Origin: Candidatus Omnitrophota bacterium
GTDB taxonomy: Bacteria; Omnitrophota; Gorgyraeia; Zapsychrales; Fredricksoniimonadaceae
Direction of reading: 5' to 3'
NCBI GenBank assembly: GCA_903908245.1
Contig: CAIVRE010000007.1
Coordinates: 4,984 to 68,983, forward strand
DNA length: 64,000 bases
Position numbers and translations under genes: made by a program. Shown here piece by piece: positions 2,854-48,738 of this stretch; the stretch's first letter is position 1; every line of letters begins with the position of its first letter. The notes under the pieces were generated by a model. It was not told the DNA's origin and ran no database searches. It saw only the letters and a list, made by a program, of their open reading frames with translations.

Positions 2854-2870
2854 AATGTTTTTGGGCTTCA

Positions 2871-2951: not shown

Positions 2952-3028
2952 TTTCGCCCTCAGCGAGTAGGATCAAGAGATCAATAAGGCATGAAGCCTA
3001 TGACGTCCCGTGAACCTGTTAGGGTAGG

Positions 3029-3400: not shown

Positions 3401-3413
3401 TTTTAAGGAAGAT

Positions 3414-32152: not shown

Positions 32153-32257
32153 GACCCGTCCAATAAATATTTCAATAAATCATTCTTTAAATAATCCTGT
32201 TTGTTAAGATTAATTTGGTAACTACTATCAAACAATCTTAATTAATGTTGATTTAAA

Positions 32258-35200
32258 ATGCCTCAGGGGTCTTTCATTAAAAACTTCGGGCAATCCGCGG
32301 CGAACTTTTTCTTTTTCACCGGGGCTTTCTTTCTGGTCGTTTTCGCGGCCTGGGGGGCGGGTATCACTGTTCCCCAGAATTCCCAGTTAAAACTCAATAC
32401 CGGCAAACTGAACCTCAAGCTTGATAATAATTCCGGTCACGTGAATAACGCCGGGGTCATTCAGATGACGACCGGCGAGATCAAGCTTAACGGCAACTGG
32501 ACAACGACTACTGCCTCAGGATACATTTTAGGCGGTTCGGGGACGGTTGAGTTCGCGGCGGACGCTGGCACCCAGTATATTGTGCCGGGGGCGAACAGCA
32601 ATGACACGTTCGGCGATGTGGTCCACAGTGGGTCGGCCGCGGTCGAGCTGGTCGCCCATCCGATCAAGATCGGCGGGAGTTTTAATAACAACGTCGGGAC
32701 ATTTAAAACTAACAATCTTAATATGACGGTGGGAAGGGATTGGAATAATCCGGCATTCCCGGCGTTCATTTCCGGGTCTGCCACTGTTAACCTGGATGGC
32801 GGGGACCAGGTGATCTCCGGGAGCACGACATTTAACAATCTTACCAAGGTCCTGACTGCGGCCGGAAATCATTCCCTGACTTTTCCTTCCGGCAAGGAAC
32901 AGAAGGTTTCGCGTCTTTTGACCCTGCGGGGGTTCGGCGGTACGGGGAAACTGTTCCTGGGGAGCAGTACCAATACCACACAGGCTTTTCTGACACTGCA
33001 GAATAGCGGGGTCCAGGATATTCATACGGTGCATGTCCGGGATAATAATGCCGGCAATGGGCTTGTGCTGGTGGCGCGCGGGGTGGATTCCAGCGACTTG
33101 GGGAATAATTTCCATTGGTTGTTCGGTGCTGTCACGGTCAAATGGGACGGATCCGAGGACAATGACTGGAACAATCCGTTCAACTGGGATGTTGGCCTGG
33201 TGCCGGGGGAGCTTGATACCGCGATCATTCGTGTCTTCGACGAGGATACAGGGTTGCCTATTGTGCGGGAGCCGGTATTGAGCGGGGGGATCTCGCCTGT
33301 CACGGGGCTTGCGATCACGAACCGTGTCGGGAATTTGATCATCCGTCCAGGGGCGACATTAAAACTGGATGGACGGGATATGACCATTGATGGCGGGTTT
33401 ACCAATGATGGTACGGTCATTCTTGACGGCATGGTCATGGTTGGCGGGGTCAGGACGGAAACGTTGACGGCCGGCAGCATGGTCGATAACGGGACGTTCA
33501 TGTATTACGGCCGGCCTGGCATGAAATCCACGATCGATCTGACCCAGAGCTTTCTGATCGGCGGGAATTATCTGACCACATTCAACAATCTGGTGATCAA
33601 TGAACAGGTTTCGGGTCCTTTTGAATCCGATACTTTTGTAACAGGCGTTCCGCTCACGATCAGTCATGCGATGACGCTTGATGCGGGTGCGTTCACGATC
33701 GGTCCCGGGTCCACGCTTTTTGTCCAGGGCAGTTTAACGGCGAATGGCGGCACTTTTACGATCAGTGAGGCTGTCAGTGTCACGGGTGATACGAATATTT
33801 CCGGGGCATCGGTGGTGATAGCCAGCAATACAGCCACGTTGACGGACCTTCGGGACCTGAATGTTTCCTCCGGCACGCTCAATGCCCTGCAGGGTAATAT
33901 CCGTGCGAACAGTGTGAATATATCCGGTGGTACACTCCTGGCTCCGGGGCCGGGACAAAGCTTTGCCATCTCCGCGGACTTTACGCATTTGCCGGCCGGG
34001 ATTTTTACGCACGACAATGGGACCGTTACTTTTGACGCTTTGTCTAATGCTGCGAACACCGATCAGGTTATTTCCGGGGATACATCTTTTTATGATTTCG
34101 TCAAGCAAGTCCCGGATGCGGCATTCGTCGGCCAGACGCAGAGGCTGACTTTGGCTGAAACTTCCACACAAACGGTGGGGAATTATCTGACATTGACGGG
34201 AGGGGTGGATCTGCTTCTGATCCGCAGTACGACCACGACCGGCGTGGCGGGGAATTTGAAACTTGTCACCAACGCGGGGCAGACCATTAGGAATGTCGAT
34301 GTGGAGAATAACGCCGCCACGGGCCTGACCCTGGTTGGCCGCGGCTTGTCCAGGAGGACAGGGAACAATACCCCGAACTGGGAATTCGGGTCGGCCACGA
34401 TCACCTGGGATGGTTCCGAGTCGACGGATTGGAATGAGCAGCGTAACTGGAACCTGGGCATTATCCCTCTTCCGAACGATAATGTGGTTGTGACCAACGG
34501 CGCGACCGTTGATTTCCAGCCGGTATTATCCAGTGATGTGACCGTGGGTGAGCTCACCCTGTTCGTGCCATCCGCGACTTTGCACCTTGCGGGGTTCAAC
34601 ATGACGGTTCACAATACGATCACGTCTTCCGGGACCCTTTCCAATGAGGGGGTTATTTTCCTGCGCGGCACAGAGCGTGTGAGCATTGATACTCCGGATA
34701 CGGATTCCGGGATGTTTGTTTACCAGGGAGATAATAACCCTGGTGTAAAACAGATCACGGTTTTGGGCCCGAATACTTTTTATAATCTGAAGATCAATGA
34801 CCTCAATGGCAATCCTTCCAATTTCACGCTTACGACCGATATGACCATTCATGGTTCTTTGACGGTCGATGGCGGAACGATGACTTCGAGTGGTTATAGC
34901 ATTGATCTGGGCGGGAGTTTTGTTCTGTCGAGCGGGACGTTCATGGCGCCGGGGACCGGAAAAACGTTGTTTGTCGGCGGGAATTTCACTCATACGGGGG
35001 GTGCCTTTATCCATAATGACGGGACCGTGGTGTTTGATGCCCCGGCCAGTGTTCCGTTGAACGACCAGGTTATTTCTGGGGACACGAGTTTCTTCGAGTT
35101 CATCAAGCAGGTCCCGGTGACGGCCGCGCCGCTGCAGCAGCTGACCTTTGCCGATGCTTCGCTCCAGTCGGTGCTTGGGAAGCTTGTCCTCCAGGGGGCA

Positions 35201-38200
35201 TCCCTGGCTAATCCTTTGCTTATCCGGTCAAGCCTTGCGGGAACGGCGGCTTATTTGAAACTTGAGGTCGGCGGGCGTCAGACCATTTCGGCGGTCGATG
35301 TCAAGGATTCAAATGCTTCCGGGGTTACCCTCGTGGCCCGGAATTCTCCGGACCATTTCGATATCCCTCCCAGTAATTTTTACAATAACACGAACTGGGT
35401 TTTCGGGGTCCCGGTCATAAGATGGGACGGTTCCGCGTCCACTGATTGGGGGGATCCGCTCAACTGGAACCTCGGGATTGTCCCGATCTCCGGGGATGCT
35501 GTGGTCATCCGGTCGATCGACCCTCTGAGCATTCCACCTGGTCAGCAGATCATGAATCAACCGCAACTGACCGCCTTGTCGGGGGCGGTCTCTCCAGGAA
35601 GTATGACGCTTGATTCCGGGACGACATTGACCCTTAACGGCTTCGGCCTTACGGTCCAGGACACGTTGACGAATAATGGCAATATCATTGCGCAGGGAGG
35701 GGAGCCTATTGCGATCCATTTTCCTGATACGCAGCACGGCACATTTACCTATACAGGCGTGCCCGGCGGAACGGTTGCGCTGAATAAATTCGACCCCGCC
35801 CATACGGCTATTGAGTATTATAACCTGGTCCTGACGGATAACGGAGTTGCCAATTTGTTCCAGAGCCAGGGCGATGTCCATGTTTTCGGCAATCTGACCG
35901 TGTCTTCCGGAAGCCTGGATGTATCGACCGGCAGCGATTCGTTAAAGATCGACGGGAACATGCTGATCGCTTCCGGCACGACCGTGAACGCTTTGAACGG
36001 CGCGATTGATCTGCAGGGCTCGGTCAGTATTAATGGCCGTCTTTCAGCGCCGATCACCAATCATTCGTTCACTGTCGGAGGCAGCTGGTCGCTTGACCCT
36101 GTGACCGGGATATTCGAGCACAATTCCGGGCGGGTGACGTTTGATACATCCAATGCCACGACACTGACGGGGAACACGGTGTTCTTCGACCTGGCGATCG
36201 AATCCAATAGCGGTAAAAAGGTATTTTTCCAGGCGGGGAGTACCCAGACCATCCTTGACTCGCTGGGTATGGTAGGCGGAGGGGCGGGCAAGATCATTCT
36301 GCGTTCGACCCAGGAAGGGACGCAATGGACCCTTCTGCTGAGTTATATCAATAATGCCGATGCAACGATCATCCCCAATACTCTTGTCCGGTTCGTGGAT
36401 GTCAAGGATTCGATCGCGACAGGCCCATTAGGGCTGGCCGTCAGGCCGACCTATATTACGGCGATCAATTCCATTGATCAGCCGTCGGTCCTTCCGAATC
36501 AGGGGTGGAAGTTCATGCAATTGACCTTGATCGCTCCGGTGGATGAGCGTGTGGTGGGGGTGAGGCCGGTCCTGATCGGCCAGGCTTTCCCGGAAGAGGC
36601 ATATACGGTGAAGGATAAAGGAGGGGTTGTGGTGGCGTCCGGGACGGCGGATAGCCACGGGTATTTCCGGACGGAATTGACCGCGGACCTGCCTCTGGGA
36701 GCAAATCAGTTAACGCCTTATTATTTGAGCGTCCCCGGCATTTCCAGTGACCTGACAATCGACGCGGCCCCTGTCCCTGCCCAGGTGCCGGTGATCACCA
36801 GTCCTTCGGTATCTGTCCGTTTGAGCGGTAACCGTCCGACGTTCACCGGGGTGGCCAAGCCCAATACTTTGGTGTATGTGGTCGCCAACAATTATACGAT
36901 CTCCAATAACAACACGATCGACATGCCGTTAACCCTTCCGCTGGAGAGTGCCGCGGGCGTCGGCATGTCGGATGCGGCAGGGAACTTTTCGATCCAGTTG
37001 ACAACAGCATTGAAGCGCGGACAGAATACGATCTCGGTGGTGGCGGACGGTGTTTCCAGTGCGATAAATACGTATTCCTTGAATGATATTTACGGGTATC
37101 TTTTTGATTCCGCGACGAACAATACCATTCGCGGGGCCAGGGTGTATCTGTATAAACTCGATGGTAACGGCCAGAGGATCCCGGTCGTCAGGGGGCTTGA
37201 TATTGCTCTTCTTGAAGCGGACCAGCCTAACCCGGTCCTGACCAATGACGCCGGTCTTTTTGAGATCCGGGTGATCAATTTTGACCCGACGGTCCGGTAT
37301 GTGCTTGATGTGCAGGAGCTTGGCTACACCTTTCCGACAGCGATCAAGGACAATAGCCTGCTTCCGGCTGGCCGCCTGATCATAACGGGATCGCGTGGAG
37401 AGGCTTTTTCATTGCTGACGGATTCTGTGCGGCTTGACCTGCCGGTTGATGCCAATCAGTTCCTGTTCAAGGTTACCAAAGATGCCAACAAGGCGGAAGC
37501 CAGGATCGGTGAGGTCGTGACCTATACCGTAACCATTGAGAACCTGTCGGATCAGAATACGGTCCTGGAGACCCGGCTGAATGATATTATTCCGCCCGGG
37601 TTCAAGTATATGAGCGGCCGTGTTCATTTTGTTGACGGAACGCCGATCGAGGCGTCCGGTGCCCGTCCGGTCGTCTTTAAGGTCGGGGCATTTACTGCAC
37701 GCCAGATCAAGGCCATGAAATATCAGCTGGTCATCGGCGCGGGTGTCGCTCCGGGTGATTATGAGAACACCGCGTTCATGAAATATGACAATGGTTCGCT
37801 GATCTCCAATCGTGCGCATCAGACCGTCAAGGTTGTCATGGATCCCTTATTTGATGCGGGGACCGTGTTCGGAAAGGTTTTCTGGGACCTTAACGAGAAC
37901 GGCCGTCAGGATGCGCCGGAATATGATTATGAAAATCGCCAGGAGATCATTGAAGGCCCGGTGCCCAACGTGCATATCGTGATGGAGGATGGCACCAGTA
38001 TCGCGGCGGATAAGAACGGGCAGTTCCATGTCCCGGCCCTGTTGCCCGGGCGGCATGTGATCATGGTCGATCAGCGCAGCCTGCCGAAGGGCGCTTTTCT
38101 GACGACGGATAAAGCCTTGGTCATCGATGTCACGGCCGGCATGGTGGTCAAGGCGAATTTCGGCGTGAATATGGGCAATGGCCAGATCGTCGGGGAAGAC

Positions 38201-41200
38201 GTGCGCTTCTTTGACAAGAACCTTAAGGTCGATCAGACCCCCGACCATCTGACGCCGTTGCTCAATGTGGATATGTTCGAGCGGGAGCTGTGGCTGCATC
38301 TGGACACCATTATCAAGCCGGTGGAATTGCGGATGTTCATGAATTACGCTCCGTTCATTTCCTCCTGGAAACTGGATATCGTTGACAAACAGACCAAGAA
38401 GCTTGTCAGGGAGTTCAACGGGACGCGTTATAATATCAATGATCCTGTTTTCTGGGATGGGCGCGACCTTTCCGGACGGTTTGTCCGTATTGATCGTAAT
38501 TATACATATTTACTGAAAGTCCAGGATAGCAAGGGCGTTTGGGATGAGACGAAAGAAAAAGATATCGCGTTACGTGTATTGACCGACATTGAATTTGAGG
38601 CCCTTTCCAAAAAGACGGAGGAAGAAAAGACAAAAGAGTCCGAGGCCCGTGACAAGGAATATCGCGCCTGGCAGTTGGCCCAGGGATCGGCGGATCATAC
38701 GAGCCAGCGCAATATTTTTGTCCGGGGTGAAACGCTGACCATTGACCCCGAGGAGACGGATATCCGTCAGGTCCGGGTGCTCAAGAATGGCGAGTTGTTT
38801 ATTGATCTTCCGGTGCCCGAACGGCAGGCATTGACCGCCCGCGGGCTTTTGAGCGGGGAGGCGGTCCAGTCCCGGCCGGTGCAGGTTATTCTTCCGGATG
38901 GAGATTATGAGCTGGAGGTTGTCAGTGCGGACACGGGCGAGGTCGCGGCCGTAGCCGCAGGGGGCGGCCGGGTCAGTCCTGTCAAGGGGACTTCCGCGCC
39001 GGACACCTCCTCGCTGGCATCTGCTTCAGGCGTGCCGGCGCTGGATGGGAACGCCTCTTCCAGGAATAACAAGGTGTCGCAGTACCGCCGGCCGATCAAG
39101 GTGGGCGATGATTATATGACCTTCGTGGCGATGGGAGACGGGAAGGTCGGCTATAACGTCGACCGGGGCAATATTGAGCCGGTCCAGTCGGTGGATAAAT
39201 TTCGGCCCGGGTTCTATCGTGAAGGGAAGATGGCTTATTATTTGAAGGGCAAGGTCAAGGGGAAATATCTTCTGACATCGAGCTTTGATACCGAGCGTAG
39301 ACAGAAGGAAATGTTCCGTTCGATCAAGCCGGACCAGTATTATCCGGTCTATGGAGATTCTTCGACCGTGAATTATGACGCCACCAATACGCAGGGGAAT
39401 CTTTATCTGATGCTTGAGTGGGACAAGTCGCAGGCGGTCTGGGGGAATTATGCGGTTGATTTCAATGATACCGAATTCGCCAAGTACAGCCGCACACTCT
39501 ACGGCGGAAAAGTGGATTATACCAGTGTTGCGAATAATCCCTACGGCGATGCCAAGACCCGCGTGGCGACGTTCCATGCCGAGGTCCGGCAGCGTTCGGC
39601 GCATAACGAGTTCCTGGGGACGGGCGGTTCTCTGTATTACCTGAAACATCAGGGAGTGGTCGTTGGAACGGCAAAGGTCCGACTGGAAGTGCGTGATGCG
39701 GTGACCGGCTTGGTCCGCAGCACGACCGAGATGAAGGATGGTGTTGATTACGATATTGATAACAGCCAGGGCCGCATCCTTTTTTGGCAGCCGGTGGCAA
39801 TGTCGGCGGATTCGGGCAGGATCATTTCGAATCAGCTGCTCAAGGGAGACCCGGTATATGTGGTGACGGATTACGAGTATGAGGTGAAGGACAAGATGCA
39901 GGAAGCGACCCAGGGCGTGCGCGTGGCGCAGGCGGTGGGCGAGAATGTGGTCGTGGGCGGCACCTATGTGACCGAGACCCAGGCGGGAGGGAATTATCAG
40001 TTAAAGGGCGAGGATATTACGGTCCATGTCGGGAAAGATACAAAGATCAAGGCGGAATACGCCGCCACGCAATCCCAGGACAGTTCCAGTTACGTCTCGA
40101 CCGACGGAGGTATTACGTTCAGTGACCTTGTGGTGGGCAATCTTTCCTCGGGAAAAGCCTACGGCATGAGCCAGGACAGCCGCCTCTTCGACCGGCTGGG
40201 GCTCAAGAGTTATTATAAATGGATCGAGAACAATTTTGCGACCGCGTCAACATCTTCCCAGCAGGGCAAGGCGATGTCGGGCCTGGGGATGACGTTCGAC
40301 CTGACGCCGGTCACACGCCTTACGGCGAGCTATGACGTGCAGAAGTTGATCCAGCAGGGCAATTTGCAGACCACCATGCAGGTTGGCGCGCAGGAAACGG
40401 CAACGACCGTGCTGCAGTTGGCCCACGATGCCCGCCGGCTGCGGATCACCAGTGAATACCGCCGTCAGGAAGTGACCAACAAGGACGATCGTTATGTGTC
40501 CGAAAGCAACCAGGTCCAGAATACATTTGCCTTGCAGGCTGAGTACGACCTTGATGAAAAGACGAAGCTGACATCCAAATATCAGGTTGATCCGACGGGG
40601 AAGGCCTCCAAGGCAGGGGAGATCACGACAGGGATCACCCGGCAGCTGACGGACAAGTTGTCGGCTACGGTGGCGGAGGCTTTTGGTACGGCCGGCAATT
40701 CTACCAAGATCGGCGCGACGCTTAATGTGACCCCGAAGATCGCGACGACCGTTGAGGAATCTTTTGGCACGGCGGGCAAGACCTCCAGGGTAGGGGCGGT
40801 TGCGAATATTACGCCGAATATGGCGTTGACGACGGATTATCAGACGGCGCAGGCGGCTGGCGGGGTTACGACCCAGACGCGGACAACGTCCCTTGTTGGC
40901 AAAGAGCAGATCGGTGCCAAGACCAATATCCAGACCAATTACAGCATGGTACAGGCCGACAACGGGCCGACAAAGACGGTCGTCGGGGTGAATGCCGACT
41001 CGGAGGTGAAGCTTGATGACGCGATATTGAAGGCCGGTGTCAAGGTCCAGGCGGATGACAAGACGGTGTCGGTCCTGAGCCAGGGGGCCGGGATCGATGC
41101 GTCCAAGACGGACAAGGCGGGGCATACGACGACAAGCTCCGTTAAGGTGGATGAAACGCCCGCAGCGGGCAAGACAACCACGGTCACGCTTGGGGATAAG

Positions 41201-42595
41201 GGGGCTCTTTCGCCGGGCCGGGACCTTGTGGTGGAGCGCTCCTTTGTTTTTGGCAGTACCGGCCAAGACCGGGGCGATACCTATAAAGTCGTCCAGGACA
41301 AGGATGGCAAGAAGCTGGAGACGGCTTATACGCGCAAGCTGTCCGACACCCAGGCCCAGCGTTCCGCTTCGAATATTTTCGGCCTGACGGGGGATGTGAA
41401 TGACCGGGTGGCGGCCAATGCGTCGCTGGAGCAGGGGATCGTTCAGGGCATTGACGGGTCGTTATATCATCGCACGGCTATTACCGGCGGGTTTGGTTAC
41501 GTGGAGAAGGATGAGGAGGGTAAGGAAAAGATCAAAAGTTCCACCAAGGCCGAGCTGCGTATCGATCGTGGTACGCAGGACAAGCAGCAGATCGTTCTTT
41601 ATCAGGATGCCCAGGGCAAGGTCAGTGATGAGATGACGCTTTCCGCCAAATTCCAGTATTCGCAGACCAAGGACCGGACGCTTAATAAAGTCGAGGCCCA
41701 GTACAAGGAGATCATGCTGGGTACGGCTTACCGTCCTATTATGGATGACAAGCTGAATCTTTTCGCGAAGTATACCTATAAAGAGAATCAGGGGCCGGCA
41801 GGGCAGGTCAATATCAGCGATATCGAGCAGACGAAAATGCAGGTCTTTTCCGCGGAAGGCGCGTATGATCTGACGGAAGACTGGCAGCTTGTCGAGAAAA
41901 TGGCTTTCCGTATAATGGAAGAAAAGGTGACGGGTTTCGAGTTCAGCAGGACGCATACCTGGCTGCTGGTGAATCGCGCGAATTACCGGTTGGGCCAGGA
42001 CTGGAAGATCGGGGCGGAGTATCGTATTCTCGCGGTGCAGGAAGCCCAGGACCGCAAGAGCGGATACCTGGTTGAGGCTGTGCGCAGCCTTAATGATAAT
42101 GTCGAGTTGGGAGTCGGGTATAATTTCACGGATTTTGTGGATGACCTGACCAATTTAAGCTATACGGTGCAGGGGCCGTATGTCAGGATGACCGGCAAGC
42201 TTTATGACCGTACTCCCGAGGAGCGCGCCCTGGCCCGTCAGAAGTGGCTGGACCATCGTATCGAATTGTATGCCTGGAAGATGGTTAATACCGAGTTTAC
42301 CCGCAAGGACAGCCCTGTGGTGTTGGAGATGAATGCGATGTACCGGGAGGCCCAGGCGGCCAACCAGCGCGGCCAGTACGAGCAGTCGCGCAAGCTCTAT
42401 AAAGATGTTATCCTGGCCACCCAGATCATGTTCGAGGAGGCGGCGAATTTTGTGCGCAAGCATATTTCGTTTGAAGAGAAACTTTTCAATGCGGCGCAAC
42501 GTGCCAAGGAATATTATGACAAAGGCGAACTTTGGGCGGCCAAGAAACTTTGGGAGAAAATTGTGGAAGAAGCCGAACGCTCTATGTTACAATAA
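32258..42595 (+). CDS. giant (3445 aa) cell-surface protein: signal-anchor, three diverged beta-helix-like modules, DUF11 domain, long beta-rich C-terminal region, helical tail
   Basis: Single uninterrupted ORF of 10.3 kb in the local coding frame. Contains a recurring motif NWxFGxxTIxWDGSxxTDWNxxxNWNLGIVP (x3), a DQVISGDTSF(Y/F)(D/E)F(V/I)KQVP motif in the second and third modules only (the first has the diverged GGDQVISGSTTFNNLTKVL), and a DUF11-like segment (IGEVVTYTVTIENLSDQNTV...). The C-terminal ~1100 aa has alternating polar/aromatic beta-strand texture. Confidence 0.8.
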   Translation: MPQGSFIKNFGQSAANFFFFTGAFFLVVFAAWGAGITVPQNSQLKLNTGKLNLKLDNNSGHVNNAGVIQMTTGEIKLNGNWTTTTASGYILGGSGTVEFAADAGTQYIVPGANSNDTFGDVVHSGSAAVELVAHPIKIGGSFNNNVGTFKTNNLNMTVGRDWNNPAFPAFISGSATVNLDGGDQVISGSTTFNNLTKVLTAAGNHSLTFPSGKEQKVSRLLTLRGFGGTGKLFLGSSTNTTQAFLTLQNSGVQDIHTVHVRDNNAGNGLVLVARGVDSSDLGNNFHWLFGAVTVKWDGSEDNDWNNPFNWDVGLVPGELDTAIIRVFDEDTGLPIVREPVLSGGISPVTGLAITNRVGNLIIRPGATLKLDGRDMTIDGGFTNDGTVILDGMVMVGGVRTETLTAGSMVDNGTFMYYGRPGMKSTIDLTQSFLIGGNYLTTFNNLVINEQVSGPFESDTFVTGVPLTISHAMTLDAGAFTIGPGSTLFVQGSLTANGGTFTISEAVSVTGDTNISGASVVIASNTATLTDLRDLNVSSGTLNALQGNIRANSVNISGGTLLAPGPGQSFAISADFTHLPAGIFTHDNGTVTFDALSNAANTDQVISGDTSFYDFVKQVPDAAFVGQTQRLTLAETSTQTVGNYLTLTGGVDLLLIRSTTTTGVAGNLKLVTNAGQTIRNVDVENNAATGLTLVGRGLSRRTGNNTPNWEFGSATITWDGSESTDWNEQRNWNLGIIPLPNDNVVVTNGATVDFQPVLSSDVTVGELTLFVPSATLHLAGFNMTVHNTITSSGTLSNEGVIFLRGTERVSIDTPDTDSGMFVYQGDNNPGVKQITVLGPNTFYNLKINDLNGNPSNFTLTTDMTIHGSLTVDGGTMTSSGYSIDLGGSFVLSSGTFMAPGTGKTLFVGGNFTHTGGAFIHNDGTVVFDAPASVPLNDQVISGDTSFFEFIKQVPVTAAPLQQLTFADASLQSVLGKLVLQGASLANPLLIRSSLAGTAAYLKLEVGGRQTISAVDVKDSNASGVTLVARNSPDHFDIPPSNFYNNTNWVFGVPVIRWDGSASTDWGDPLNWNLGIVPISGDAVVIRSIDPLSIPPGQQIMNQPQLTALSGAVSPGSMTLDSGTTLTLNGFGLTVQDTLTNNGNIIAQGGEPIAIHFPDTQHGTFTYTGVPGGTVALNKFDPAHTAIEYYNLVLTDNGVANLFQSQGDVHVFGNLTVSSGSLDVSTGSDSLKIDGNMLIASGTTVNALNGAIDLQGSVSINGRLSAPITNHSFTVGGSWSLDPVTGIFEHNSGRVTFDTSNATTLTGNTVFFDLAIESNSGKKVFFQAGSTQTILDSLGMVGGGAGKIILRSTQEGTQWTLLLSYINNADATIIPNTLVRFVDVKDSIATGPLGLAVRPTYITAINSIDQPSVLPNQGWKFMQLTLIAPVDERVVGVRPVLIGQAFPEEAYTVKDKGGVVVASGTADSHGYFRTELTADLPLGANQLTPYYLSVPGISSDLTIDAAPVPAQVPVITSPSVSVRLSGNRPTFTGVAKPNTLVYVVANNYTISNNNTIDMPLTLPLESAAGVGMSDAAGNFSIQLTTALKRGQNTISVVADGVSSAINTYSLNDIYGYLFDSATNNTIRGARVYLYKLDGNGQRIPVVRGLDIALLEADQPNPVLTNDAGLFEIRVINFDPTVRYVLDVQELGYTFPTAIKDNSLLPAGRLIITGSRGEAFSLLTDSVRLDLPVDANQFLFKVTKDANKAEARIGEVVTYTVTIENLSDQNTVLETRLNDIIPPGFKYMSGRVHFVDGTPIEASGARPVVFKVGAFTARQIKAMKYQLVIGAGVAPGDYENTAFMKYDNGSLISNRAHQTVKVVMDPLFDAGTVFGKVFWDLNENGRQDAPEYDYENRQEIIEGPVPNVHIVMEDGTSIAADKNGQFHVPALLPGRHVIMVDQRSLPKGAFLTTDKALVIDVTAGMVVKANFGVNMGNGQIVGEDVRFFDKNLKVDQTPDHLTPLLNVDMFERELWLHLDTIIKPVELRMFMNYAPFISSWKLDIVDKQTKKLVREFNGTRYNINDPVFWDGRDLSGRFVRIDRNYTYLLKVQDSKGVWDETKEKDIALRVLTDIEFEALSKKTEEEKTKESEARDKEYRAWQLAQGSADHTSQRNIFVRGETLTIDPEETDIRQVRVLKNGELFIDLPVPERQALTARGLLSGEAVQSRPVQVILPDGDYELEVVSADTGEVAAVAAGGGRVSPVKGTSAPDTSSLASASGVPALDGNASSRNNKVSQYRRPIKVGDDYMTFVAMGDGKVGYNVDRGNIEPVQSVDKFRPGFYREGKMAYYLKGKVKGKYLLTSSFDTERRQKEMFRSIKPDQYYPVYGDSSTVNYDATNTQGNLYLMLEWDKSQAVWGNYAVDFNDTEFAKYSRTLYGGKVDYTSVANNPYGDAKTRVATFHAEVRQRSAHNEFLGTGGSLYYLKHQGVVVGTAKVRLEVRDAVTGLVRSTTEMKDGVDYDIDNSQGRILFWQPVAMSADSGRIISNQLLKGDPVYVVTDYEYEVKDKMQEATQGVRVAQAVGENVVVGGTYVTETQAGGNYQLKGEDITVHVGKDTKIKAEYAATQSQDSSSYVSTDGGITFSDLVVGNLSSGKAYGMSQDSRLFDRLGLKSYYKWIENNFATASTSSQQGKAMSGLGMTFDLTPVTRLTASYDVQKLIQQGNLQTTMQVGAQETATTVLQLAHDARRLRITSEYRRQEVTNKDDRYVSESNQVQNTFALQAEYDLDEKTKLTSKYQVDPTGKASKAGEITTGITRQLTDKLSATVAEAFGTAGNSTKIGATLNVTPKIATTVEESFGTAGKTSRVGAVANITPNMALTTDYQTAQAAGGVTTQTRTTSLVGKEQIGAKTNIQTNYSMVQADNGPTKTVVGVNADSEVKLDDAILKAGVKVQADDKTVSVLSQGAGIDASKTDKAGHTTTSSVKVDETPAAGKTTTVTLGDKGALSPGRDLVVERSFVFGSTGQDRGDTYKVVQDKDGKKLETAYTRKLSDTQAQRSASNIFGLTGDVNDRVAANASLEQGIVQGIDGSLYHRTAITGGFGYVEKDEEGKEKIKSSTKAELRIDRGTQDKQQIVLYQDAQGKVSDEMTLSAKFQYSQTKDRTLNKVEAQYKEIMLGTAYRPIMDDKLNLFAKYTYKENQGPAGQVNISDIEQTKMQVFSAEGAYDLTEDWQLVEKMAFRIMEEKVTGFEFSRTHTWLLVNRANYRLGQDWKIGAEYRILAVQEAQDRKSGYLVEAVRSLNDNVELGVGYNFTDFVDDLTNLSYTVQGPYVRMTGKLYDRTPEERALARQKWLDHRIELYAWKMVNTEFTRKDSPVVLEMNAMYREAQAANQRGQYEQSRKLYKDVILATQIMFEEAANFVRKHISFEEKLFNAAQRAKEYYDKGELWAAKKLWEKIVEEAERSMLQ
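32800..36200 (+). repeat. three tandem diverged ~1.0-1.26 kb coding modules inside the giant gene
   Basis: Module landmarks are at ~32804/34061/35061 (DQVISG...) and ~33111/34372/35391 (NWxFG...WDGS...DWN...NWNLG). Copies 2 and 3 are ~80% identical at nucleotide level in these blocks. Confidence 0.7.
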
Positions 42596-42654: not shown

Positions 42655-45600
42655 ATGAAGAAGCCTGCCTATATACTACTTTTTCTGTTGTCTGCTTGTT
42701 TCCTCCCTTTAAAGGGCATTTATGCCCAACCCCCTGCTGAAGGGGAGCCTTCCGTGCTGGCTGATGGGCAACCGTCTGTCCTCAAAGAAGATAAAGCCCA
42801 GTCGAATTATGTTTACGACCTTAAAGTCCTGATTCAGAAGTCGCGTGAGAATATCAAGAATGTGAATGAAAAGATCAAGGACCAGGCTGTCAAGAAGCGC
42901 AATCAGCAGCGGGAAGAGAAGGCGCGCGAGTATTTCCTTCAGGCCCAGAAGCTGGCCGATGAGGGCCGGCTGGAAGAATCCCGTCAGTTGTATGCGAAAG
43001 CCATCAGCATTACCGAACATCCGGAGATGAAATACTTTATTAAGGAAAGCGAGCATCGCGCCAAGCTTCAGAAAGCCGCGCTTTCCAAGGAAGAAAGCGA
43101 ACAGCAGCGCCGGACCGAAGAGGATGAGAAGACGGCGTTCGAGCGTGTTGAGAACATGTATCAGGGGGCGGTGTCCCTTTACAAGCAGCAGCGTTTTAAG
43201 GAAGCCAAGGAGGAGTTTCAGACGGTTGAAGAAGTTTTCCCTGATTACAAGGCGGTCCGCAGTTATCTGCAGATCATCGAACAGGATATTGTCCAGGCGG
43301 AACGGCAGGGCATCAAAGATCAGCAGAAAGAGATCGAGTCGCAGCAGAAGGAAAGCGAGATCGCCCGTCTTCGTGAGAAGGAGTTATGGCGTAAAGAGAT
43401 CGACCGCAAGGAAGAAGACCGCAAGCGGCAGGTCCAGAAGCAGGCGCAGGGTGTTTACGATGAGGCGATCAAGCTTTATCAGGACCGCAAGTACATGGCG
43501 GCCAAGGAGAAGTTCCAGGAAGTGGAGTGGGTCATTCCGGATTTCAAGTCTACGCGTTCGTATTTGCAGCGTATCGAACGGGATCTGGAAGTGGATAAGG
43601 AGCGCGTTACGCAGGAGCGTCAACAGACTGTCGGGAAGCAGCGCTGGGAGGAGACTCTTTCCCAGAAGAAGGCCGAGGAGGAGCGCAAGAAAGCCGAGAG
43701 CATGCGCGAGCGCCAGAAGCTTGAGGGAAAGAAGGACCAGGCCGAGTTCGTGTATCAGTCGGCGATCGCCCTTTTTAACAAGGATCAATACCCGGTGGCC
43801 CGTGAGCGGTTCGATGAAGTCGAGAATATTTATCCGGATTACCGTTCGACCCGGGATTATCTTAAACGTATTGATGAAATGATGAAATCCCAGATAGCGC
43901 GGGATGAAGGGTTGCGCAGGACAGCGACCGAGCAAAAGGTCTTTGAAGAAGAAAGCGCCAAGCGCAAGGAAGAAAAAGAGAGGTTCAAGAAGTTGACGGA
44001 CGAAGCGGATTCTATTTATGCCGAGGCGTTCGAACTTTATAAGATGGGCCGGCTGATCGAAGCCAAGGAGAAATTCCTGGATGTTGACAAGCGTGTCCCG
44101 GATTATAAATCCACGCGCAGTTATTTGAGCCGCATTGATGCGGATATCGAGGCGATGGTGGCGGCAAACCGCAAGGAAGGGAACCTGGCCGCCCAGCAAG
44201 AACAGCTGACGCGCCTGAAAGAACTGCGGGATAAAGCGGATATGGCGTATAACGAAGCGGTCCTGGCGTATGATAACAAGAACTATACCGACGCCAAAGC
44301 AAAATTCCTGGAAGTTGAAAGCATATATCCGAATTATAAAAAAGCCGGGACTTATTTGTCCCGTATCGATGATGATATCGCTTCGCGTCAGAAAGAGGAA
44401 GAGCGCAGGGAAAAGGAGAAGCAGGTCGAAGGGGTTTATGCGCAGGCGTTGGTCGCTTATCAGAATGAGGAGTTTGAAGAATCCAAGGCCAAGTTCATCG
44501 AAGTGGTGTCGCTGGTCCCTGATTATAAGCAGACATCGTTTTATCTGGAGCGCATTGATGATGATGTGATCCGTCACAAACAGAAAGCCCTGGATGACGC
44601 GCAGGAGCGCCAGGCAGAGACACTTTATAATCAGGCCGTTGCCTTATATCAGGCGGGCCAGTATTCCGAGGCCAAGGATAAATTCCTTCAACTTGAGTCT
44701 GTGTATTCAAATTACAAGGATGCTGTCAAGGTTTTCGCCAATATCGATGCGGATATCCAGCGCAAAGCGCTCGAGGATGAGCAGAAAGCAAAGGCCGCCC
44801 GTGCGGAAGTATTGTATCAGCAGTCGCTGGCTTTGTATCAGGCGCAGGATTATACAGCGGCCAAGGAGAAGTTCATCCTGACGGAAGTGGTTTACCCTGA
44901 TTATAAGGATACTCCGAAGTATCTTTTGTCGATCAATAGTGATATTAAGAAGAAGGCGGAAGATCTGGAGCAGAGAAGAAAGGCCGATGAGGCCGAACCT
45001 TTATATGTTCAGGCCCTGGCGCTTTATAAAGAGCAGGATTTTGAGGCCGCAAAGAAGAAGTTCCTCCAGGTTCAGATGGCTTGTCCAGGATACAAGGAAA
45101 CAGAGCGTTATCTTGCCCGGGTCGATGAGGATATCCGTCTTTTGCAGTCCAGGCTGGCCAAGGAAGACCGGTTGAGCAAGGCCGAGGGTTTGTATGCGCA
45201 GGCGATGAGCCTTTATTCGGAGACAAAATTCGAGGAAGCCAAGGGCAAGTTCCAGGAGGTCGCCGCCCTGGAAAGCAACTATCGTAATGTGAGGGCTTAT
45301 CTGGCCCGTATTGATAGTGATATACGCAATGAACAGGCGCGTTTGGCCCGGATCGAGCAGGAACAGCTGGCCGAGCCTTATTACGCGGAGGCTGTTGCGC
45401 TTTATCATGACGGGAAGTTCGAGGAGTCTAAACCGAAGTTCGAGAAAGTGATCAGGATCCTTCCGGATTACAAGAAGGCCAGGTTTTATTTTACGCGCAT
45501 TGATAATGATATCCGTTCCCAGAAGCAGGAAGAGGTCCGTCAGCGTCAGGAGCAGGCGGAAGCGGCGTATCGTGAAGCCGCGTTCCTTTCACGCAACGGG

Positions 45601-48600
45601 GATGACACCAAGGCGTATCAGAAATACAGTGAAGTTGAAACGATCTATCCTGATTTTAAAGCGACGCGAAAAGCGTTGAAAGATTTAAAGGAAGGGTTGA
45701 TCCAGAAAAGCATAGTTCTTCCCAAAAAAGTGTTGGCTGTCGCGCCTGTCGTTACGTCTGAGCCTGTCAGGACGGGTGAAGAGGAGGTCCTTGCGCTTTA
45801 TAAAGAAGGGGTCAGCCTTTATAAAGATAAAAAGTACGCGCAGGCCAAGGACAAGTTCGAAGGGGTTGAGCGGCTTCGTTCAGGGTACCGTTCCACAGAA
45901 AGATATTTGAAGAATATCGCGGTGGAGTTGCCTGGTCCCGGTGAAGGGGCCAAGCCCAAGGAGGTTTTGGCCCAAACGCCGGTCCTTTCCGGAAATTCGC
46001 GTCAGATTTACGATCAGGAGGTCACGGCGGCCGAGCCGCTTTATAAGGCTGCGCTTGAGCTGTACAGATCGGCCCGATACGAGGAGGCGCGTGTCAAGTT
46101 CCATGAGGTTGAAGCGGTATCCCGGGATTATAAATCGACGCGTGAATATTTATTGTTGATCGCGAAGGTGAAGGGCGGTCCGAGCCCGGTGGTGGATCAG
46201 CAACTGGTCCAGGAGTCAAGGACCGTTGCGGACCTTTCGCAGAAGTCCGGGCTTTTATACAGCCAGATCCGCGCGTTGGCGGATGATAAAGATCTTGCTG
46301 CTGCGGCAAAAACATTTTCCAAGATCGACAAGATCGTCGAAAGCCTGGAACAAGAGAAAAAAAGGCTGGCGCGGACGATCGAGCGCGGAGAAAAAGAGGC
46401 GCGTGAGCGGGCTGGACGTATCAAGGCGGTTGAGAAAGAAGAGGCCCGTTCTGTCGAAAAAAGCGCGGCGGTTCATCAGCAGGACTTAAAGCAGAAGCAG
46501 GTAGAGAAGAAGGATGAGGAGGAGCGTGCGCGTCAGGCGGTTGCGATGAAGGAGCAGCAGGACTTAAAGCGCAAGGAACGGGCCCGGTTGGCTCAGGTGC
46601 AAGAAATGGAAAGGGAAAACGCTCTTAAAGCCGAAGTTTTGTATCGGCAGGGGCTGGGTAAGCTTAATGACAAGAATTATGCACTGGCCAAAGAGCGCTT
46701 TATGGATGCGCAGAAGGTGCTGCCCGGATATAAGGATACGGATCAGTTGCTCGTCAGGATCGATAAGGTCGAGGGTGAGCAGAAATTGCTTGAGCAGGAG
46801 AATGTTGACCACGGCAAGATCGCAACGATCGCGGAGAAAGCGAATGCCGTTAATCTTGAAGCCTTGGCGCTTTCTACCGCCAAGAATTTTACTGATCTTC
46901 AGAAAAAGTTCGATGAATTGAGTTCCTTATTAAAAGATATCCAGGCGATCAAGGCGCAGATGCTGGCGCGTCGTGAAGGGTTCCGTGTGGAGTGGGAGAC
47001 CAAGCTTGCCGCTTCCCGGGCAAGGTCTGCGGTTCCCAGGCCGATCAAGGATGCGAAGGCCATGGTTGAGGGGCGTACTGCGCGCCAGCAGGCTGAGGGT
47101 TTTTATAAGGAAGGGGAAGTATTCTATCATGCCGGGCAATACGCGGAAGCGCGTGTAAAGTTCCGGGATGCTTTTTCCGCGGACCCGACATTTAAAGCGG
47201 CGTATACTTTTTCGTTGAGGGTTGACCGCATTCTGGAGCGCCGGGATTTCGAAGAGCAACAGGACCGGGGGAACAGGGAGCGCCGTCATTTTGAGGACAA
47301 GCAGGAAGGAAAAGAACATCCGGCTTCGGTCGATGATCTGCAGATGCCGGATCCGGCCCGGGCGAAGGAGGTCTTTGGGGAAGGCATTGCGCTTTATAAG
47401 GCGAAGAGTTACAAGGAAGCGCGGATCAAGTTCGAAGAGCTTATGAAGGTCGGGGATGATTCCCAGCGGTCGAAAGCCAGGCGTTATCTCGGCTTGATCG
47501 AGTCCGGGATCGAAAAGGCCCGGCAGGAAATGGAGAAGGAAAGAACCAGGGAAGAAGCGCGTTATCTTGAGGCCAAACGCATGGAGATCCGCATGGCCTG
47601 GGAAAAAGATAAAGGGTTACAGGCTCAGCAGCTGGCGGATTCTTCTGCTTCAAACCAGCGAGGTCAGGAGGTCGCTGTTGAGCGGCAGGTGCTTTTAAGG
47701 TCTATTGAACAGGAGAATGACGCGCAACGGAAGAAGATGCTGGCGGAAAAGCTTCGCCAGAAGGATATTGCAGAGAGGCAGACTTTAACGGAATGGGGTA
47801 AGGTCAGGAAGATCGCGGCGCATCAGGATGTCAAGATGGATGTAAAAGCGCCGGCCATGCCCGATAAGGTTGATGCGGGCAAGCTTTTGTTGGTTCCGGC
47901 GAAAAAAGTGGAACCGGTGCCCAGGAAAGAGAAATCTGTGCCCGTTGATGAGGGGAAATCGCCTGTGCAGGAAGTGAAGGTTGCGGTGGCAGTGGCGGCG
48001 ACGGATGTGAAGACCGAGGCCAGGTCCCGGGAGAAGCTTGCGGCCAGTAGTATGAAGAAAAAGCCGTTGCTGGTCACGGCGACGGATAGCCGTGAAGATG
48101 CTAAATTCCAGCGGCTGATCACACGGGAGAAAGCCCTTGAGGCAAGGGAAACAGAGCGCAAGCGGCTGATCATGGAGCAGGAGCACCGCTCCAGGGAGCT
48201 TGAGAAAATGCGGCTTGAGGAAAAGAAGCAGCGTGCGCTGGACAATCAGAATCGTCGAGAGCAGAGAGGGGGCAAGGCCGTGGTTGTGTCTGTTCCCGGG
48301 AAGCCCGAAGTGGGTGTTCAGGTTCCCGTTGCGGCGGTTCCGGTTGTTTTGGCGCCACCTCTTAAGGGAGCAGGATCTTTTGATGTGTATAAGGTTGCGG
48401 CCAATGAAGAAAAACGCCGTCTTGAAGAACAGCGGTCCGCGATCGTGCATGATTTTGAGGTCGGCGTTGAGCGTTTGTATGTGGAAGCCCAGGACCTTTA
48501 CACGAAACATGCGTATGAAGAATCAAAGGCTGATTTTGATCAGATCAATGAACTGAGCAAAGGTTATAAGAGAACAGAGCAGTATTTGACGCTGATCAAT

Positions 48601-48738
48601 AAAGAATTGGCAAAAGCTTCGTATAAACAAAAGACAGTTGCTGTTCCTTTCCCGGGTTCTTCCGCGATAAAGGCTGATGGCCGTCAACAGGCAGTTTCCC
48701 AAATGCTTGACCAGGCTGAGTCGGGTGCCGTGAAGTAA
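42655..48738 (+). CDS. 2027-aa predicted lipoprotein composed of ~20 tandem helical repeats (unrecognised repeat family) plus a highly charged coiled-coil C-terminal half
   Basis: ATG 42655 gives the signal peptide MKKPAYILLFLLSACFLPLKG (possible lipobox LSAC). A 62-100-aa unit recurs: '(A)E.LY.QA..LYK...Y.EAK.KF.EVE..(Y/F)PDYK.TR.YL.RID.DI' followed by a K/E/R/Q-rich linker. The ORF-track start at 42532 overlaps the giant gene. Confidence 0.8.
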   Translation: MKKPAYILLFLLSACFLPLKGIYAQPPAEGEPSVLADGQPSVLKEDKAQSNYVYDLKVLIQKSRENIKNVNEKIKDQAVKKRNQQREEKAREYFLQAQKLADEGRLEESRQLYAKAISITEHPEMKYFIKESEHRAKLQKAALSKEESEQQRRTEEDEKTAFERVENMYQGAVSLYKQQRFKEAKEEFQTVEEVFPDYKAVRSYLQIIEQDIVQAERQGIKDQQKEIESQQKESEIARLREKELWRKEIDRKEEDRKRQVQKQAQGVYDEAIKLYQDRKYMAAKEKFQEVEWVIPDFKSTRSYLQRIERDLEVDKERVTQERQQTVGKQRWEETLSQKKAEEERKKAESMRERQKLEGKKDQAEFVYQSAIALFNKDQYPVARERFDEVENIYPDYRSTRDYLKRIDEMMKSQIARDEGLRRTATEQKVFEEESAKRKEEKERFKKLTDEADSIYAEAFELYKMGRLIEAKEKFLDVDKRVPDYKSTRSYLSRIDADIEAMVAANRKEGNLAAQQEQLTRLKELRDKADMAYNEAVLAYDNKNYTDAKAKFLEVESIYPNYKKAGTYLSRIDDDIASRQKEEERREKEKQVEGVYAQALVAYQNEEFEESKAKFIEVVSLVPDYKQTSFYLERIDDDVIRHKQKALDDAQERQAETLYNQAVALYQAGQYSEAKDKFLQLESVYSNYKDAVKVFANIDADIQRKALEDEQKAKAARAEVLYQQSLALYQAQDYTAAKEKFILTEVVYPDYKDTPKYLLSINSDIKKKAEDLEQRRKADEAEPLYVQALALYKEQDFEAAKKKFLQVQMACPGYKETERYLARVDEDIRLLQSRLAKEDRLSKAEGLYAQAMSLYSETKFEEAKGKFQEVAALESNYRNVRAYLARIDSDIRNEQARLARIEQEQLAEPYYAEAVALYHDGKFEESKPKFEKVIRILPDYKKARFYFTRIDNDIRSQKQEEVRQRQEQAEAAYREAAFLSRNGDDTKAYQKYSEVETIYPDFKATRKALKDLKEGLIQKSIVLPKKVLAVAPVVTSEPVRTGEEEVLALYKEGVSLYKDKKYAQAKDKFEGVERLRSGYRSTERYLKNIAVELPGPGEGAKPKEVLAQTPVLSGNSRQIYDQEVTAAEPLYKAALELYRSARYEEARVKFHEVEAVSRDYKSTREYLLLIAKVKGGPSPVVDQQLVQESRTVADLSQKSGLLYSQIRALADDKDLAAAAKTFSKIDKIVESLEQEKKRLARTIERGEKEARERAGRIKAVEKEEARSVEKSAAVHQQDLKQKQVEKKDEEERARQAVAMKEQQDLKRKERARLAQVQEMERENALKAEVLYRQGLGKLNDKNYALAKERFMDAQKVLPGYKDTDQLLVRIDKVEGEQKLLEQENVDHGKIATIAEKANAVNLEALALSTAKNFTDLQKKFDELSSLLKDIQAIKAQMLARREGFRVEWETKLAASRARSAVPRPIKDAKAMVEGRTARQQAEGFYKEGEVFYHAGQYAEARVKFRDAFSADPTFKAAYTFSLRVDRILERRDFEEQQDRGNRERRHFEDKQEGKEHPASVDDLQMPDPARAKEVFGEGIALYKAKSYKEARIKFEELMKVGDDSQRSKARRYLGLIESGIEKARQEMEKERTREEARYLEAKRMEIRMAWEKDKGLQAQQLADSSASNQRGQEVAVERQVLLRSIEQENDAQRKKMLAEKLRQKDIAERQTLTEWGKVRKIAAHQDVKMDVKAPAMPDKVDAGKLLLVPAKKVEPVPRKEKSVPVDEGKSPVQEVKVAVAVAATDVKTEARSREKLAASSMKKKPLLVTATDSREDAKFQRLITREKALEARETERKRLIMEQEHRSRELEKMRLEEKKQRALDNQNRREQRGGKAVVVSVPGKPEVGVQVPVAAVPVVLAPPLKGAGSFDVYKVAANEEKRRLEEQRSAIVHDFEVGVERLYVEAQDLYTKHAYEESKADFDQINELSKGYKRTEQYLTLINKELAKASYKQKTVAVPFPGSSAIKADGRQQAVSQMLDQAESGAVK
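42950..47520 (+). repeat. tandem array of ~19 coding repeats (period 190-300 nt), with one more degenerate copy at ~48440-48610
   Basis: Repeated ...PDYK(S/A/Q/D)T(R/S)xYLxRIDxDI... blocks seen, e.g. at ~43240, 43540, 43840, 44100, 44330, 44520, 44710, 44890, 45080, 45270, 45460, 45650. Confidence 0.7.

Follow-up and report, generated by a model that had tools for sequence, protein, structure and literature searches.

A giant multi-module envelope protein of an uncultivated Omnitrophota bacterium ends in a widespread, unmodelled region of outer-membrane barrel type

We analysed a 64,000-nucleotide stretch (the window) of contig CAIVRE010000007.1, from the Candidatus Omnitrophota assembly GCA_903908245.1. 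The open reading frame (ORF) at window positions 32258..42595 (+ strand) encodes a real giant multi-module envelope protein of this uncultivated bacterium. The ORF runs uninterrupted from an ATG start through 3445 amino acids (aa) and a stop codon, with 0 internal stops, and intact co-linear orthologous ORFs of 3205–3454 aa are present at four other loci (L001, L005, L006 and L007), which bears out the giant 3445-aa protein proposed in an initial annotation made from the sequence alone. From the N to the C terminus, the protein comprises a signal-peptide-like start, four G/T/N-rich repeat units, an Ig-like stalk with a DUF11/CLIPPER domain, a beta-hairpin region of ~1050 aa and a helical tail of 129 aa. 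The C-terminal region belongs to a widespread family of outer-membrane barrel type that has no model in domain libraries. The most probable reading, in our judgement, is that the protein forms a self-anchored, outer-membrane-embedded surface fibril, built like an oversized autotransporter.

The N terminus (aa 1–34; 32258..32359, +) has a hydrophobic core, FFFFTGAFFLVVFAAWGAG, which is the only alpha-transmembrane-like hydrophobic segment across the 3445 aa; the position of the cleavage site is putative. The ...AWG[AS]GI.. motif of this N terminus is kept in the orthologues. The protein contains 0 cysteines versus about 28 expected from neighbouring genes, and together with the single N-terminal hydrophobic segment, this absence argues for an envelope protein.

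The beta-hairpin region spans aa 2265–3316 (39050..42205, +), and no model in Pfam or NCBIfam matches it. A word-index search with aa 2290–3445 returned 650 matches, whose source names were Omnitrophota, Ca. Scalindua, Thermodesulfovibrionia, Deltaproteobacteria, Planctomycetes, Kangiella and Sedimenticola. An exhaustive phmmer search over 1.84 billion cluster representatives (50% identity clusters) yielded 2953 relatives at E ≤ 1e-3 and 1036 at E ≤ 1e-30. The family proteins are 900–7612 aa long, with the match at the C-terminal end in the listed full-length matches and N-terminal regions of up to ~6700 aa ahead of the barrel. A typical member has a signal peptide, 0–1 N-terminal module, Ig-like domains (Big_6, CarboxypepD_reg, DUF11, SdrD_B, FlgD-like or Glucodextran_B-like) and the barrel region; the window protein is set apart mainly by its four modules. 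In a Kangiella homologue (P0119), the last ~160 aa pass the Pfam cut-off for Porin_4 (E = 5.6e-12, 46.5 bits versus 27) and nearly pass that for OMP_b-brl.

We modelled aa 2265–3445 with AlphaFold2 from a 56-sequence alignment and assigned strands with DSSP. The model (predicted local distance difference test (pLDDT) 72.8, predicted template modelling score (pTM) 0.67) contains about 50 strands of 10–16 residues each, arranged in hairpins with short turns, followed by four helices. It is confident at aa ~2385–2795 and ~3050–3445. The intervening aa ~2818–3045 are not confidently modelled and part of them is missing from most relatives, and we therefore place the conserved core at ~43 predicted strands. 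That a pTM of 0.67 is reached despite 22% disordered residues argues that the two confident halves would form one body. In the family alignment, 27 of the 50 strands show a strong hydrophobic/polar dyad. Foldseek searches of the Protein Data Bank (PDB) with this model returned large outer-membrane barrels (TonB-dependent receptors, LptD, SprA 6h3j and SlpA 8agd), except for two ApoB100 beta-belt entries, with probabilities up to 1.0 and E values down to 2e-9. When the PDB was searched by sequence, with the whole protein, the stalk or profiles of the two family alignments as queries, no match was significant (best FlgD, E = 0.069, and chitoporin, E = 0.11). The ~50 hairpin strands, the dyad hydrophobicity, the Foldseek barrels, Porin_4 in the Kangiella homologue and the ...GKF/Y-COOH ends of relatives together argue for a barrel region, and the ~1050 aa could form a single closed barrel of >40 strands.

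The initial annotation had described a porin-like C-terminal third from ~39.1 kb that ended at GVGYNFTDF. A beta-rich region of outer-membrane barrel type is indeed present there, but GVGYNFTDF (aa 3285–3293) is its penultimate strand, and the region ends one strand on, with GPYVRMTGKLY (aa 3306–3316; 42173..42205, +). This last strand corresponds to the beta-signal at the C terminus (...GPFIRITGKF-COOH) of tail-less relatives, which terminate exactly at ...GIGYNFTDFSDDL....GPFIRITGKF. Y, F or W is the final residue in 75 of 128 newly listed representatives, and a terminal aromatic strand is the classical beta-signal of outer-membrane proteins. The most conserved segment of the family lies elsewhere, at aa 2454–2530 (TGGSLYYLKH...DYDID..GRILF; 39617..39847, +). 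It is modelled as a small insert with short DSSP strands between strands 8 and 9, not as a barrel strand, and its nearly invariant columns are T191–L198, R215, D233, Y234, G241 and R242 (alignments A1/A2). A plug, a lectin-like element or an assembly element are candidate roles for this insert.

Ahead of the barrel, relatives carry PQQ propellers, PKD, DUF11 arrays and Big_9, as well as domains of surface-adhesin type (SdrD_B, Big_1 and Invasin_D3). The tryptophan-rich motif that recurs in the window protein's repeat units (WxG..W..NW..P) is found 0 times in 119 of the 128 representatives, while the other nine carry 1, 2, 3 or 8 copies (8 in the 4913-aa P0155). In two Kangiella-type genomes (L002 1329–13726 and L009 1–10031), the adhesin-like part and the barrel are encoded by two genes. 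The upstream gene encodes a DUF11-rich protein of >2000 aa (15 DUF11 repeats in L002) with an OmpA-like domain at its C terminus, and its stop codon overlaps the start codon (ATGA) of a 1240-aa barrel protein with its own signal peptide. Fused relatives of the P0083 type have an OmpA-like domain at the equivalent place, after the Ig domains and just ahead of the barrel. An arrangement that exists in both fused and split form is classical evidence for functional coupling, here of the adhesin-like part and the barrel. With 2953 clusters, lengths of 900–7612 aa, 0–8 motifs and differing passenger domains, the two forms point to a variable passenger on a constant C-terminal barrel. Between the window protein and its orthologues, identity is 45–65% over aa 1–1700 and 80–95% over aa 2300–3445, a pattern by which the predicted membrane part is constrained and the N-terminal part fast-evolving. 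At a further locus, L011 4458–13138 (Planctomycetes metagenome-assembled genome (MAG) JACQZI010000008.1), a 1852-aa PQQ-propeller/PKD ORF ends mid-DUF11 and overlaps a barrel ORF without a signal peptide; a single fused gene of ~2900 aa, interrupted by a frameshift or sequencing error, is the most likely origin of this pair.

The Kangiella split pair, with its adhesin gene overlapping the barrel gene, also resembles a cargo and its transporter. The barrel might accordingly be read as a giant translocon or channel for other cargo, similar to SprA, with the N-terminal domains as gating or substrate-binding accessories and the tetratricopeptide repeat (TPR) and AsmA-like proteins encoded downstream as machine parts. 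The ~43–50 predicted strands imply a very wide lumen, SprA is among the Foldseek matches and the operon partners are conserved. SprA, the 36-strand translocon of type 9 secretion, was still called the largest known beta-barrel in 2026 (10.64898/2026.03.07.710327). The window protein resembles it in exceeding 2000 aa and in a predicted outer-membrane beta structure that is very large and formed by a single chain. However, the two have no sequence relationship, a TM-score of only 0.10–0.14, and different phyla and gene contexts, and the window barrel is C-terminal and fused to adhesin-like domains. In most relatives examined, moreover, candidate cargo and barrel share one polypeptide, and the gene cluster holds no ATPase or known secretion-system component. 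We regard a translocon for other cargo as decidedly improbable.

In the preferred reading, of a surface fibril, the displayed part begins with the N-terminal 1420 aa, which consist of four units of a solenoid-like stretch plus a 'DQVISG...NWxFG' subdomain, with a WDGS motif introducing units 2–4. Unit 1 (aa 35–295; 32360..33142, +) has the beta-solenoid-like stretch and the subdomain without a WDGS leader, as delimited by internal BLASTP and AlphaFold2 (pLDDT 80–94 for aa ~119–289). Internal BLASTP, AlphaFold2 and a motif scan define unit 2 (aa 296–716; 33143..34405, +; leader WDGSEDNDWNNPFNWDVGLVP) and unit 3 (aa 717–1055; 34406..35422, +; leader WDGSESTDWNEQRNWNLGIIP), and BLASTP and the motif scan define unit 4 (aa 1056–1420; 35423..36517, +; leader WDGSASTDWGDPLNWNLGIVP), which has a diverged terminal subdomain at aa ~1284–1419. 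When fragments were compared with the protein itself by BLASTP, repeats were far above chance at 28–47% identity: aa 602–798 matched aa 936–1147 (E = 4e-39, the lowest value), aa 201–391 matched aa 956–1147 (E = 3e-30) and aa 205–399 matched aa 628–806 (E = 8e-24). A weaker match between aa 1284–1419 and aa 915–1049 (E = 1.4e-6) revealed the fourth, partial unit, so the three diverged modules of the initial annotation are real repeats but number four. The full motif, W-D-G-S-x4-W-x4-N-W-x-x-G-x-x-P, occurs three times, as had been recognized, at aa 296, 717 and 1056; the earlier positions of ~285, 705 and 1045 were about 11 aa too low. DQVISG lies at aa 183, 602 and 936 (nucleotides 32804, 34061 and 35063), in agreement with the module starts previously placed at ~32.8, ~34.06 and ~35.06 kb, and the first copy lacks KQVP, as noted then.

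An identity of ~80% between modules at the nucleotide level had been taken to imply recent internal duplication. That figure is true of a 56-nucleotide stretch (78.6%) encoding the conserved DQVISGDTSF..F.KQVP, in which third codon positions make up 9 of 15 differences over 60 nucleotides, but not of whole modules. The only other nucleotide-level match is a stretch of 105 nucleotides at 73%, and codon-aligned units have 37–43% amino-acid and 48–54% nucleotide identity, with the same codon used at only 44–46% of identical residues. The three WDGS motifs stand at the same positions in all four orthologues, down to about 41% identity. Because unit identities are low and the motifs are co-positioned in the orthologues, the duplication predates the clade and is neither recent nor an assembly artefact. 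We rejected both recent duplication and gene conversion between units on the basis of nucleotide identity, codon divergence and motif positions. The idea that the long ORF arose from collapsed, expanded or chimeric repeats draws on the existence of internal repeats and on the fragmented public gene calls of the L001 orthologue. It is scarcely credible, given repeats whose nucleotide identity is too low for mis-assembly and five independent assemblies with co-linear intact ORFs and the same motif positions.

An AlphaFold2 model of aa 40–1239 (pLDDT 69, pTM 0.43) has confident segments at aa ~119–289, 459–649 and 829–1029 (pLDDT 80–95), in which strands of 3–5 residues recur every 6–7 residues. 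When we searched the PDB with this model using Foldseek, all 50 of the 50 listed matches were repeat folds, nearly all of them beta-solenoids and 3 of them leucine-rich repeat ectodomains, none significant (E ≥ 0.29). The listed matches include Ag43, EspC, Pet, Hbp, Hap, the MpAFP antifreeze solenoid, tailspikes and pectate-lyase-like enzymes. The solenoid-like strand pattern and the nature of these matches lend weak support to the beta-helix-like modules of the initial annotation, with the E values pulling the other way. Its more specific suggestion of a beta-helix with autotransporter-associated beta-strand repeats (PATR) is not supported, as neither PF12951 nor TIGR02601 matched the window protein at E ≤ 0.1 in Pfam and NCBIfam scans. 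The two-partner secretion (TPS) domain PF05860 was likewise absent in the Pfam scan, and on these scans we rejected membership of the PATR, autotransporter or TPS families for the window protein.

We found only 19 homologues of the modules, hosted by proteins with a TPS domain, PATR repeats, FecR or DUF2341 and also by proteins of candidate phyla radiation (CPR) bacteria. PF05860 is present in 6 of the 19 and PF12951 in 1 (P0131), which lacks the WxG..W..NW..P motif. A word-index search with a 200-aa single-module query returned 0 homologues, for which the limit of the word index is probably responsible. A classical autotransporter of type Va, with beta-helix repeats of the PATR type, is near to what the initial annotation had in mind. 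It would have a repetitive N-terminal passenger followed by a C-terminal beta domain, as does the window protein; the recurrence of the motif among module homologues and the one homologue with PF12951 also speak for it. Set against this, the autotransporter domain PF03797 has no match at E ≤ 0.1 in the window protein any more than the PATR models do, the beta region of ~1050 aa far exceeds the ~250–300 aa of a 12-strand domain, and the single PF12951-carrying homologue is the one without the motif. We consider this explanation extremely unlikely.

The repeat units are followed by a stalk of Ig-like and beta-sandwich domains at aa 1421–2264 (36518..39049, +), the final ~45 aa of which are a low-complexity linker. 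In the window protein, the stalk has a weak Big_6 match in Pfam, and relatives that are co-linear over this region carry Big_6, CarboxypepD_reg, DUF11, SdrD_B, Glucodextran_B and FlgD-like domains. At aa 1738–1843 (37469..37786, +), a DUF11 domain, as the initial annotation had it, is matched above the Pfam cut-off by PF01345 (E = 2.7e-7, 31.4 bits versus 24.6) and by TIGR01451 (E = 9.7e-9, 35.1 bits versus 24). CLIPPER is the new name of DUF11; this CnaA-like domain of fibrillar-adhesin stalks frequently contains an isopeptide bond (PMC12617251). The domain of the window protein aligns to PDB 9IFR across its N-terminal half, including the VTK Lys and the LND-motif Asp, and the alignment ends before the Asn position. 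The VTK Lys corresponds to the isopeptide Lys-715 only by an inferred construct numbering, which makes the aligned Asp 749 where the published number is 748. The module homologues in TPS, PATR and CPR proteins, the occurrence of CLIPPER in fibrillar-adhesin stalks and the solenoid-type Foldseek matches point to a passenger of surface type.

On the fibril reading, Sec would export the giant protein and the C-terminal beta region would insert into the outer membrane, presumably via BAM, the machinery for beta-barrel assembly, and so anchor it. The N-terminal modules and stalk would pass through the barrel lumen, or beside it, to the cell surface, where the displayed solenoid modules and Ig-like stalk may act as an adhesive fibril. 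The helical tail would stay periplasmic and may dock a BamD/YbgF-like TPR lipoprotein encoded right downstream, and an AsmA-like neighbour may help barrel assembly. The tail (aa 3317–3445; 42206..42592, +) consists of four TPR-like helices in the AlphaFold2 model (pLDDT ~90); the helical tail of the initial annotation is thus present, at 129 rather than ~140 aa. It is found in the inspected Omnitrophota- or Scalindua-named relatives and absent from the inspected proteobacterial and Planctomycetes-named ones. The tail of P0008 has a weak TPR_2 match, and similarity between the window protein's tail and the downstream TPR protein is not significant.

Outer-membrane barrel strands normally begin and finish on the periplasmic side. 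A periplasm-facing scaffold or tether would follow if the barrel sat in the outer membrane with the whole N-terminal region in the periplasm; with the tail and TPR lipoprotein, the protein would then connect the outer membrane with peptidoglycan or with the inner membrane, like SlpA and OmpM. Strand topology, the peptidoglycan-binding OmpA domain directly N-terminal to the barrel in P0083-type relatives, the OmpA-like C-terminal domain of the Kangiella-type partner proteins, the periplasm-associated TPR and AsmA-like neighbours and SlpA (8agd) among the Foldseek matches all fit such an arrangement. It fits less well with modules related to TPS-domain exoproteins and to surface proteins of CPR bacteria, which have no outer membrane. 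DUF11/CLIPPER, SdrD_B, Big_1 and Invasin_D3 belong to the domains typical of surface adhesins (PMC12617251), evolution is far faster in the N-terminal part than in the barrel, with 0 to 8 motif copies, as expected of exposed variable passengers, and a periplasm would hardly have room for pre-barrel regions reaching ~6700 aa. We consider a wholly periplasmic scaffold unlikely.

Several points weigh against the self-anchored surface fibril. The OmpA-like domain beside the barrel in P0083-type relatives puts at least the adjacent segment in the periplasm and fits a wholly periplasmic N-terminal region equally well; if the passenger threads the lumen, this domain would serve as a periplasmic retention element. 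Closure of the barrel is hypothetical and its strand number a prediction, pLDDT falls below 50 over ~230 aa midway through the beta region, and several strands there are T/S-rich and weakly hydrophobic. TM-scores to solved barrels (22–36 strands) are ≤ 0.28; with the good Foldseek E values, the outer-membrane barrel fold class is supported, yet no solved barrel has the same size or shape. The Foldseek matches of the N-terminal model lack significance, as given above. The beta-signal strand of the window protein is internal, with 129 aa after it, which is atypical. Docking of the tail to the TPR protein is suggested by gene adjacency and a non-significant motif resemblance, and the AsmA-like neighbour is conserved in the close clade only. 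A bolder and more doubtful proposal, which we put forward tentatively, is a new route of surface display: one closed barrel whose >40 strands would outnumber the 36 of SprA, with an adhesin that is fused or encoded by an overlapping upstream gene, threads the lumen and is held by a periplasmic retention element (OmpA-like in proteobacterial relatives; the TPR-like tail with the TPR lipoprotein in Omnitrophota).

We compared the protein with known surface systems. Like the type Va autotransporters Ag43, pertactin and Hap, it has a putative Sec signal, a repetitive passenger of predicted beta-solenoid type, a predicted C-terminal outer-membrane beta domain with an aromatic beta-signal end (in relatives) and a Cys-free polypeptide, and passengers that differ greatly in length and content precede a constant C-terminal domain. 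It differs in a beta region of ~43–50 strands compared with 12 strands and ~280 aa, in the missing PF03797 and PATR matches, in an Ig-like stalk after the solenoid modules and a helical tail after the beta-signal, and in passenger translocation, which here is putative. Inverse autotransporters (intimin/invasin, type Ve) share Ig-like passengers (Big_1 and Invasin_D3 in relatives) and a periplasmic peptidoglycan-binding domain, OmpA-like in some relatives and LysM in intimin, whereas their domain order is the reverse of the window protein, with its N-terminal passenger, and the window barrel is several times larger. SlpA and OmpM tethers likewise have a large C-terminal barrel (30 strands in SlpA) after a long periplasm-spanning part with a peptidoglycan-binding domain, comparable to the OmpA-like domains of the window protein's relatives, but the window protein lacks an SLH domain and a coiled-coil stalk, and its N-terminal region consists of highly variable adhesin-type beta domains.

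CLIPPER fibrillar adhesins with an OmpA-like anchor, such as Acinetobacter silvestris B9T28_05395 (PMC12617251, PDB 9IFR), share the DUF11/CLIPPER stalk domain, and the Kangiella-type partner proteins follow their design of a DUF11 array and C-terminal OmpA-like domain; in contrast, the window protein joins its adhesin-like part to a giant barrel and lacks an OmpA-like domain. The CLIPPER report names only an OmpA-like anchoring domain, and its text mentions the outer membrane 0 times (PMC12617251). A superfamily with 'at least 40 strands' was predicted, not described, in section 6 of a 2021 report (10.1101/2021.02.17.431615); like the window family it is a predicted outer-membrane barrel larger than any solved, and that section gives no sequences for comparison. 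Giant proteins of Omnitrophota (10.1101/2023.11.21.568195; 10.64898/2026.06.07.730766) come from the same phylum and have a proposed cell-contact role, but they reach 85,804 aa with another architecture (10.64898/2026.06.07.730766), compared with 3.4 kaa here. The 2026 survey of very long proteins found them to be mostly alpha-helical membrane proteins organized as multi-enzyme or tandem-repeat arrays, and genuine giants of beta-barrel type were not reported there (10.64898/2026.06.07.730766).

In an orthologue scan covering one genome per species, the closest relatives were in Omnitrophota MAGs, with best-segment identities of 85% (L005), 81% (L006), 75% (L007) and 37% (L008). The initial annotation's remark that giant ORFs are hallmarks of a few uncultivated lineages is right about the uncultivated lineage, but the likeness to Omnitrophota giants is loose and 900–7612 aa is normal in the barrel family. 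Common bacterial housekeeping genes surround the giant gene: upstream lie uvrB, groEL, guaB, guaA and dnaE, and downstream the glycine cleavage system, all on the + strand; dnaE is also upstream of the orthologue in L005–L007. In L001, L005, L006 and L007, the giant gene is followed by a gene for a TPR protein of ~2000 aa and, farther downstream, by those for an AsmA-like protein and a 241-aa coiled-coil protein. In the more distant L004, the next gene downstream of the barrel gene encodes a 600-aa homologue of the TPR protein, and with the window, six loci have this adjacency.

The TPR protein of the window (42655..48738, +; 2027 aa; Pfam TPR_2, E = 1.7e-32) has a signal peptide and lipobox (LLSAC), which make it a partner candidate. 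Repeats of ~70 aa (Y..A..LY....Y.EAK.KF.EV....PDYK.T..YL.RID.DI) extend almost throughout, and its BamD/YbgF-type matches are all sub-threshold. The start listed for this ORF, TTG at 42532, is probably wrong and the ATG at 42655 fits better; the resulting gap to the giant gene is 59 nucleotides, without a terminator-like site. Next come a 167-aa protein with 0 family matches (48750..49253, +), whose ~170-aa homologues, likewise flanked by the TPR and AsmA-like genes, were detected in L005 and L006, and the 507-aa AsmA-like protein (49275..50798, +), which has Pfam AsmA, DUF748 and YhdP N-terminal matches. Both are Cys-poor. The position of the AsmA-like gene is kept in L001, L005, L006 and L007, five loci with the window, and the gene is absent from L002, L003, L004 and L009–L011; a dedicated assembly or lipid-bridge factor for the barrel protein is a possible role for its product.

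Further observations concern the locus and its records. A perfect 8-bp inverted repeat, TTAAGATT / AATCTTAA, with arms 22 nucleotides apart, lies at window 32204–32241, within longer imperfect palindromes in an AT-rich 105-nucleotide spacer right upstream of the giant ORF; it could be an operator or regulatory site. At neither boundary of the giant gene did we find a sigma-70-like promoter on the + strand or a terminator-like site, and no paralogue of the giant protein was found elsewhere in the 64-kb window. GC skew is positive in all 2-kb bins of window 1–64000 and all long genes examined are on the + strand, consistent with a leading-strand segment without replication origin or terminus. 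A 1088-aa protein at 53685–56951 (+) has no Pfam match and a partial NCBIfam match to GH149 beta-1,3-glucan phosphorylase (E = 1e-39), far sub-threshold at 136 bits versus a cut-off of 1150. At L001 3806–13423 (GCA_964438075.1, CAYTIW010000013.1), public gene calls break up the intact 3205-aa orthologue: they include just its last 1140 aa, from an internal Met, and the remainder lies under opposite-strand shadow ORFs. Databases therefore under-report full-length family members. The L007 record (DYOU01000006.1) is titled 'Candidatus Elulimicrobium sp.', a genus that NCBI taxonomy places in the Patescibacteria group, while the locus is syntenic with Omnitrophota-labelled MAG loci and 75% identical to them in the best segment; the taxonomic label looks inconsistent.

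Length as such is unremarkable for the barrel family; its interest lies in unmodelled, very large predicted barrels with highly variable adhesin-like passengers. If the prediction holds, the largest single-chain outer-membrane barrels known would be found in this family, which occurs in records named Omnitrophota, Ca. Scalindua, Planctomycetes, Thermodesulfovibrionia, Deltaproteobacteria and Gammaproteobacteria, and it would also offer an undescribed way to anchor or export very long adhesins. For outer-membrane protein biogenesis, this raises the questions of how BAM would fold a barrel of >40 strands and how a beta-signal with 129 residues after it would be recognized. Kangiella sp. TOML190, with a 2.45-Mb genome assembly, holds a family homologue and would make the family experimentally tractable if the strain is in culture. 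In Omnitrophota, the barrel region has a helical tail after the beta-signal and a conserved TPR lipoprotein as partner candidate. For this phylum, the protein is a candidate cell-contact fibril, and an adhesive fibril would suit the host- or prey-attached lifestyle that has been proposed for it.

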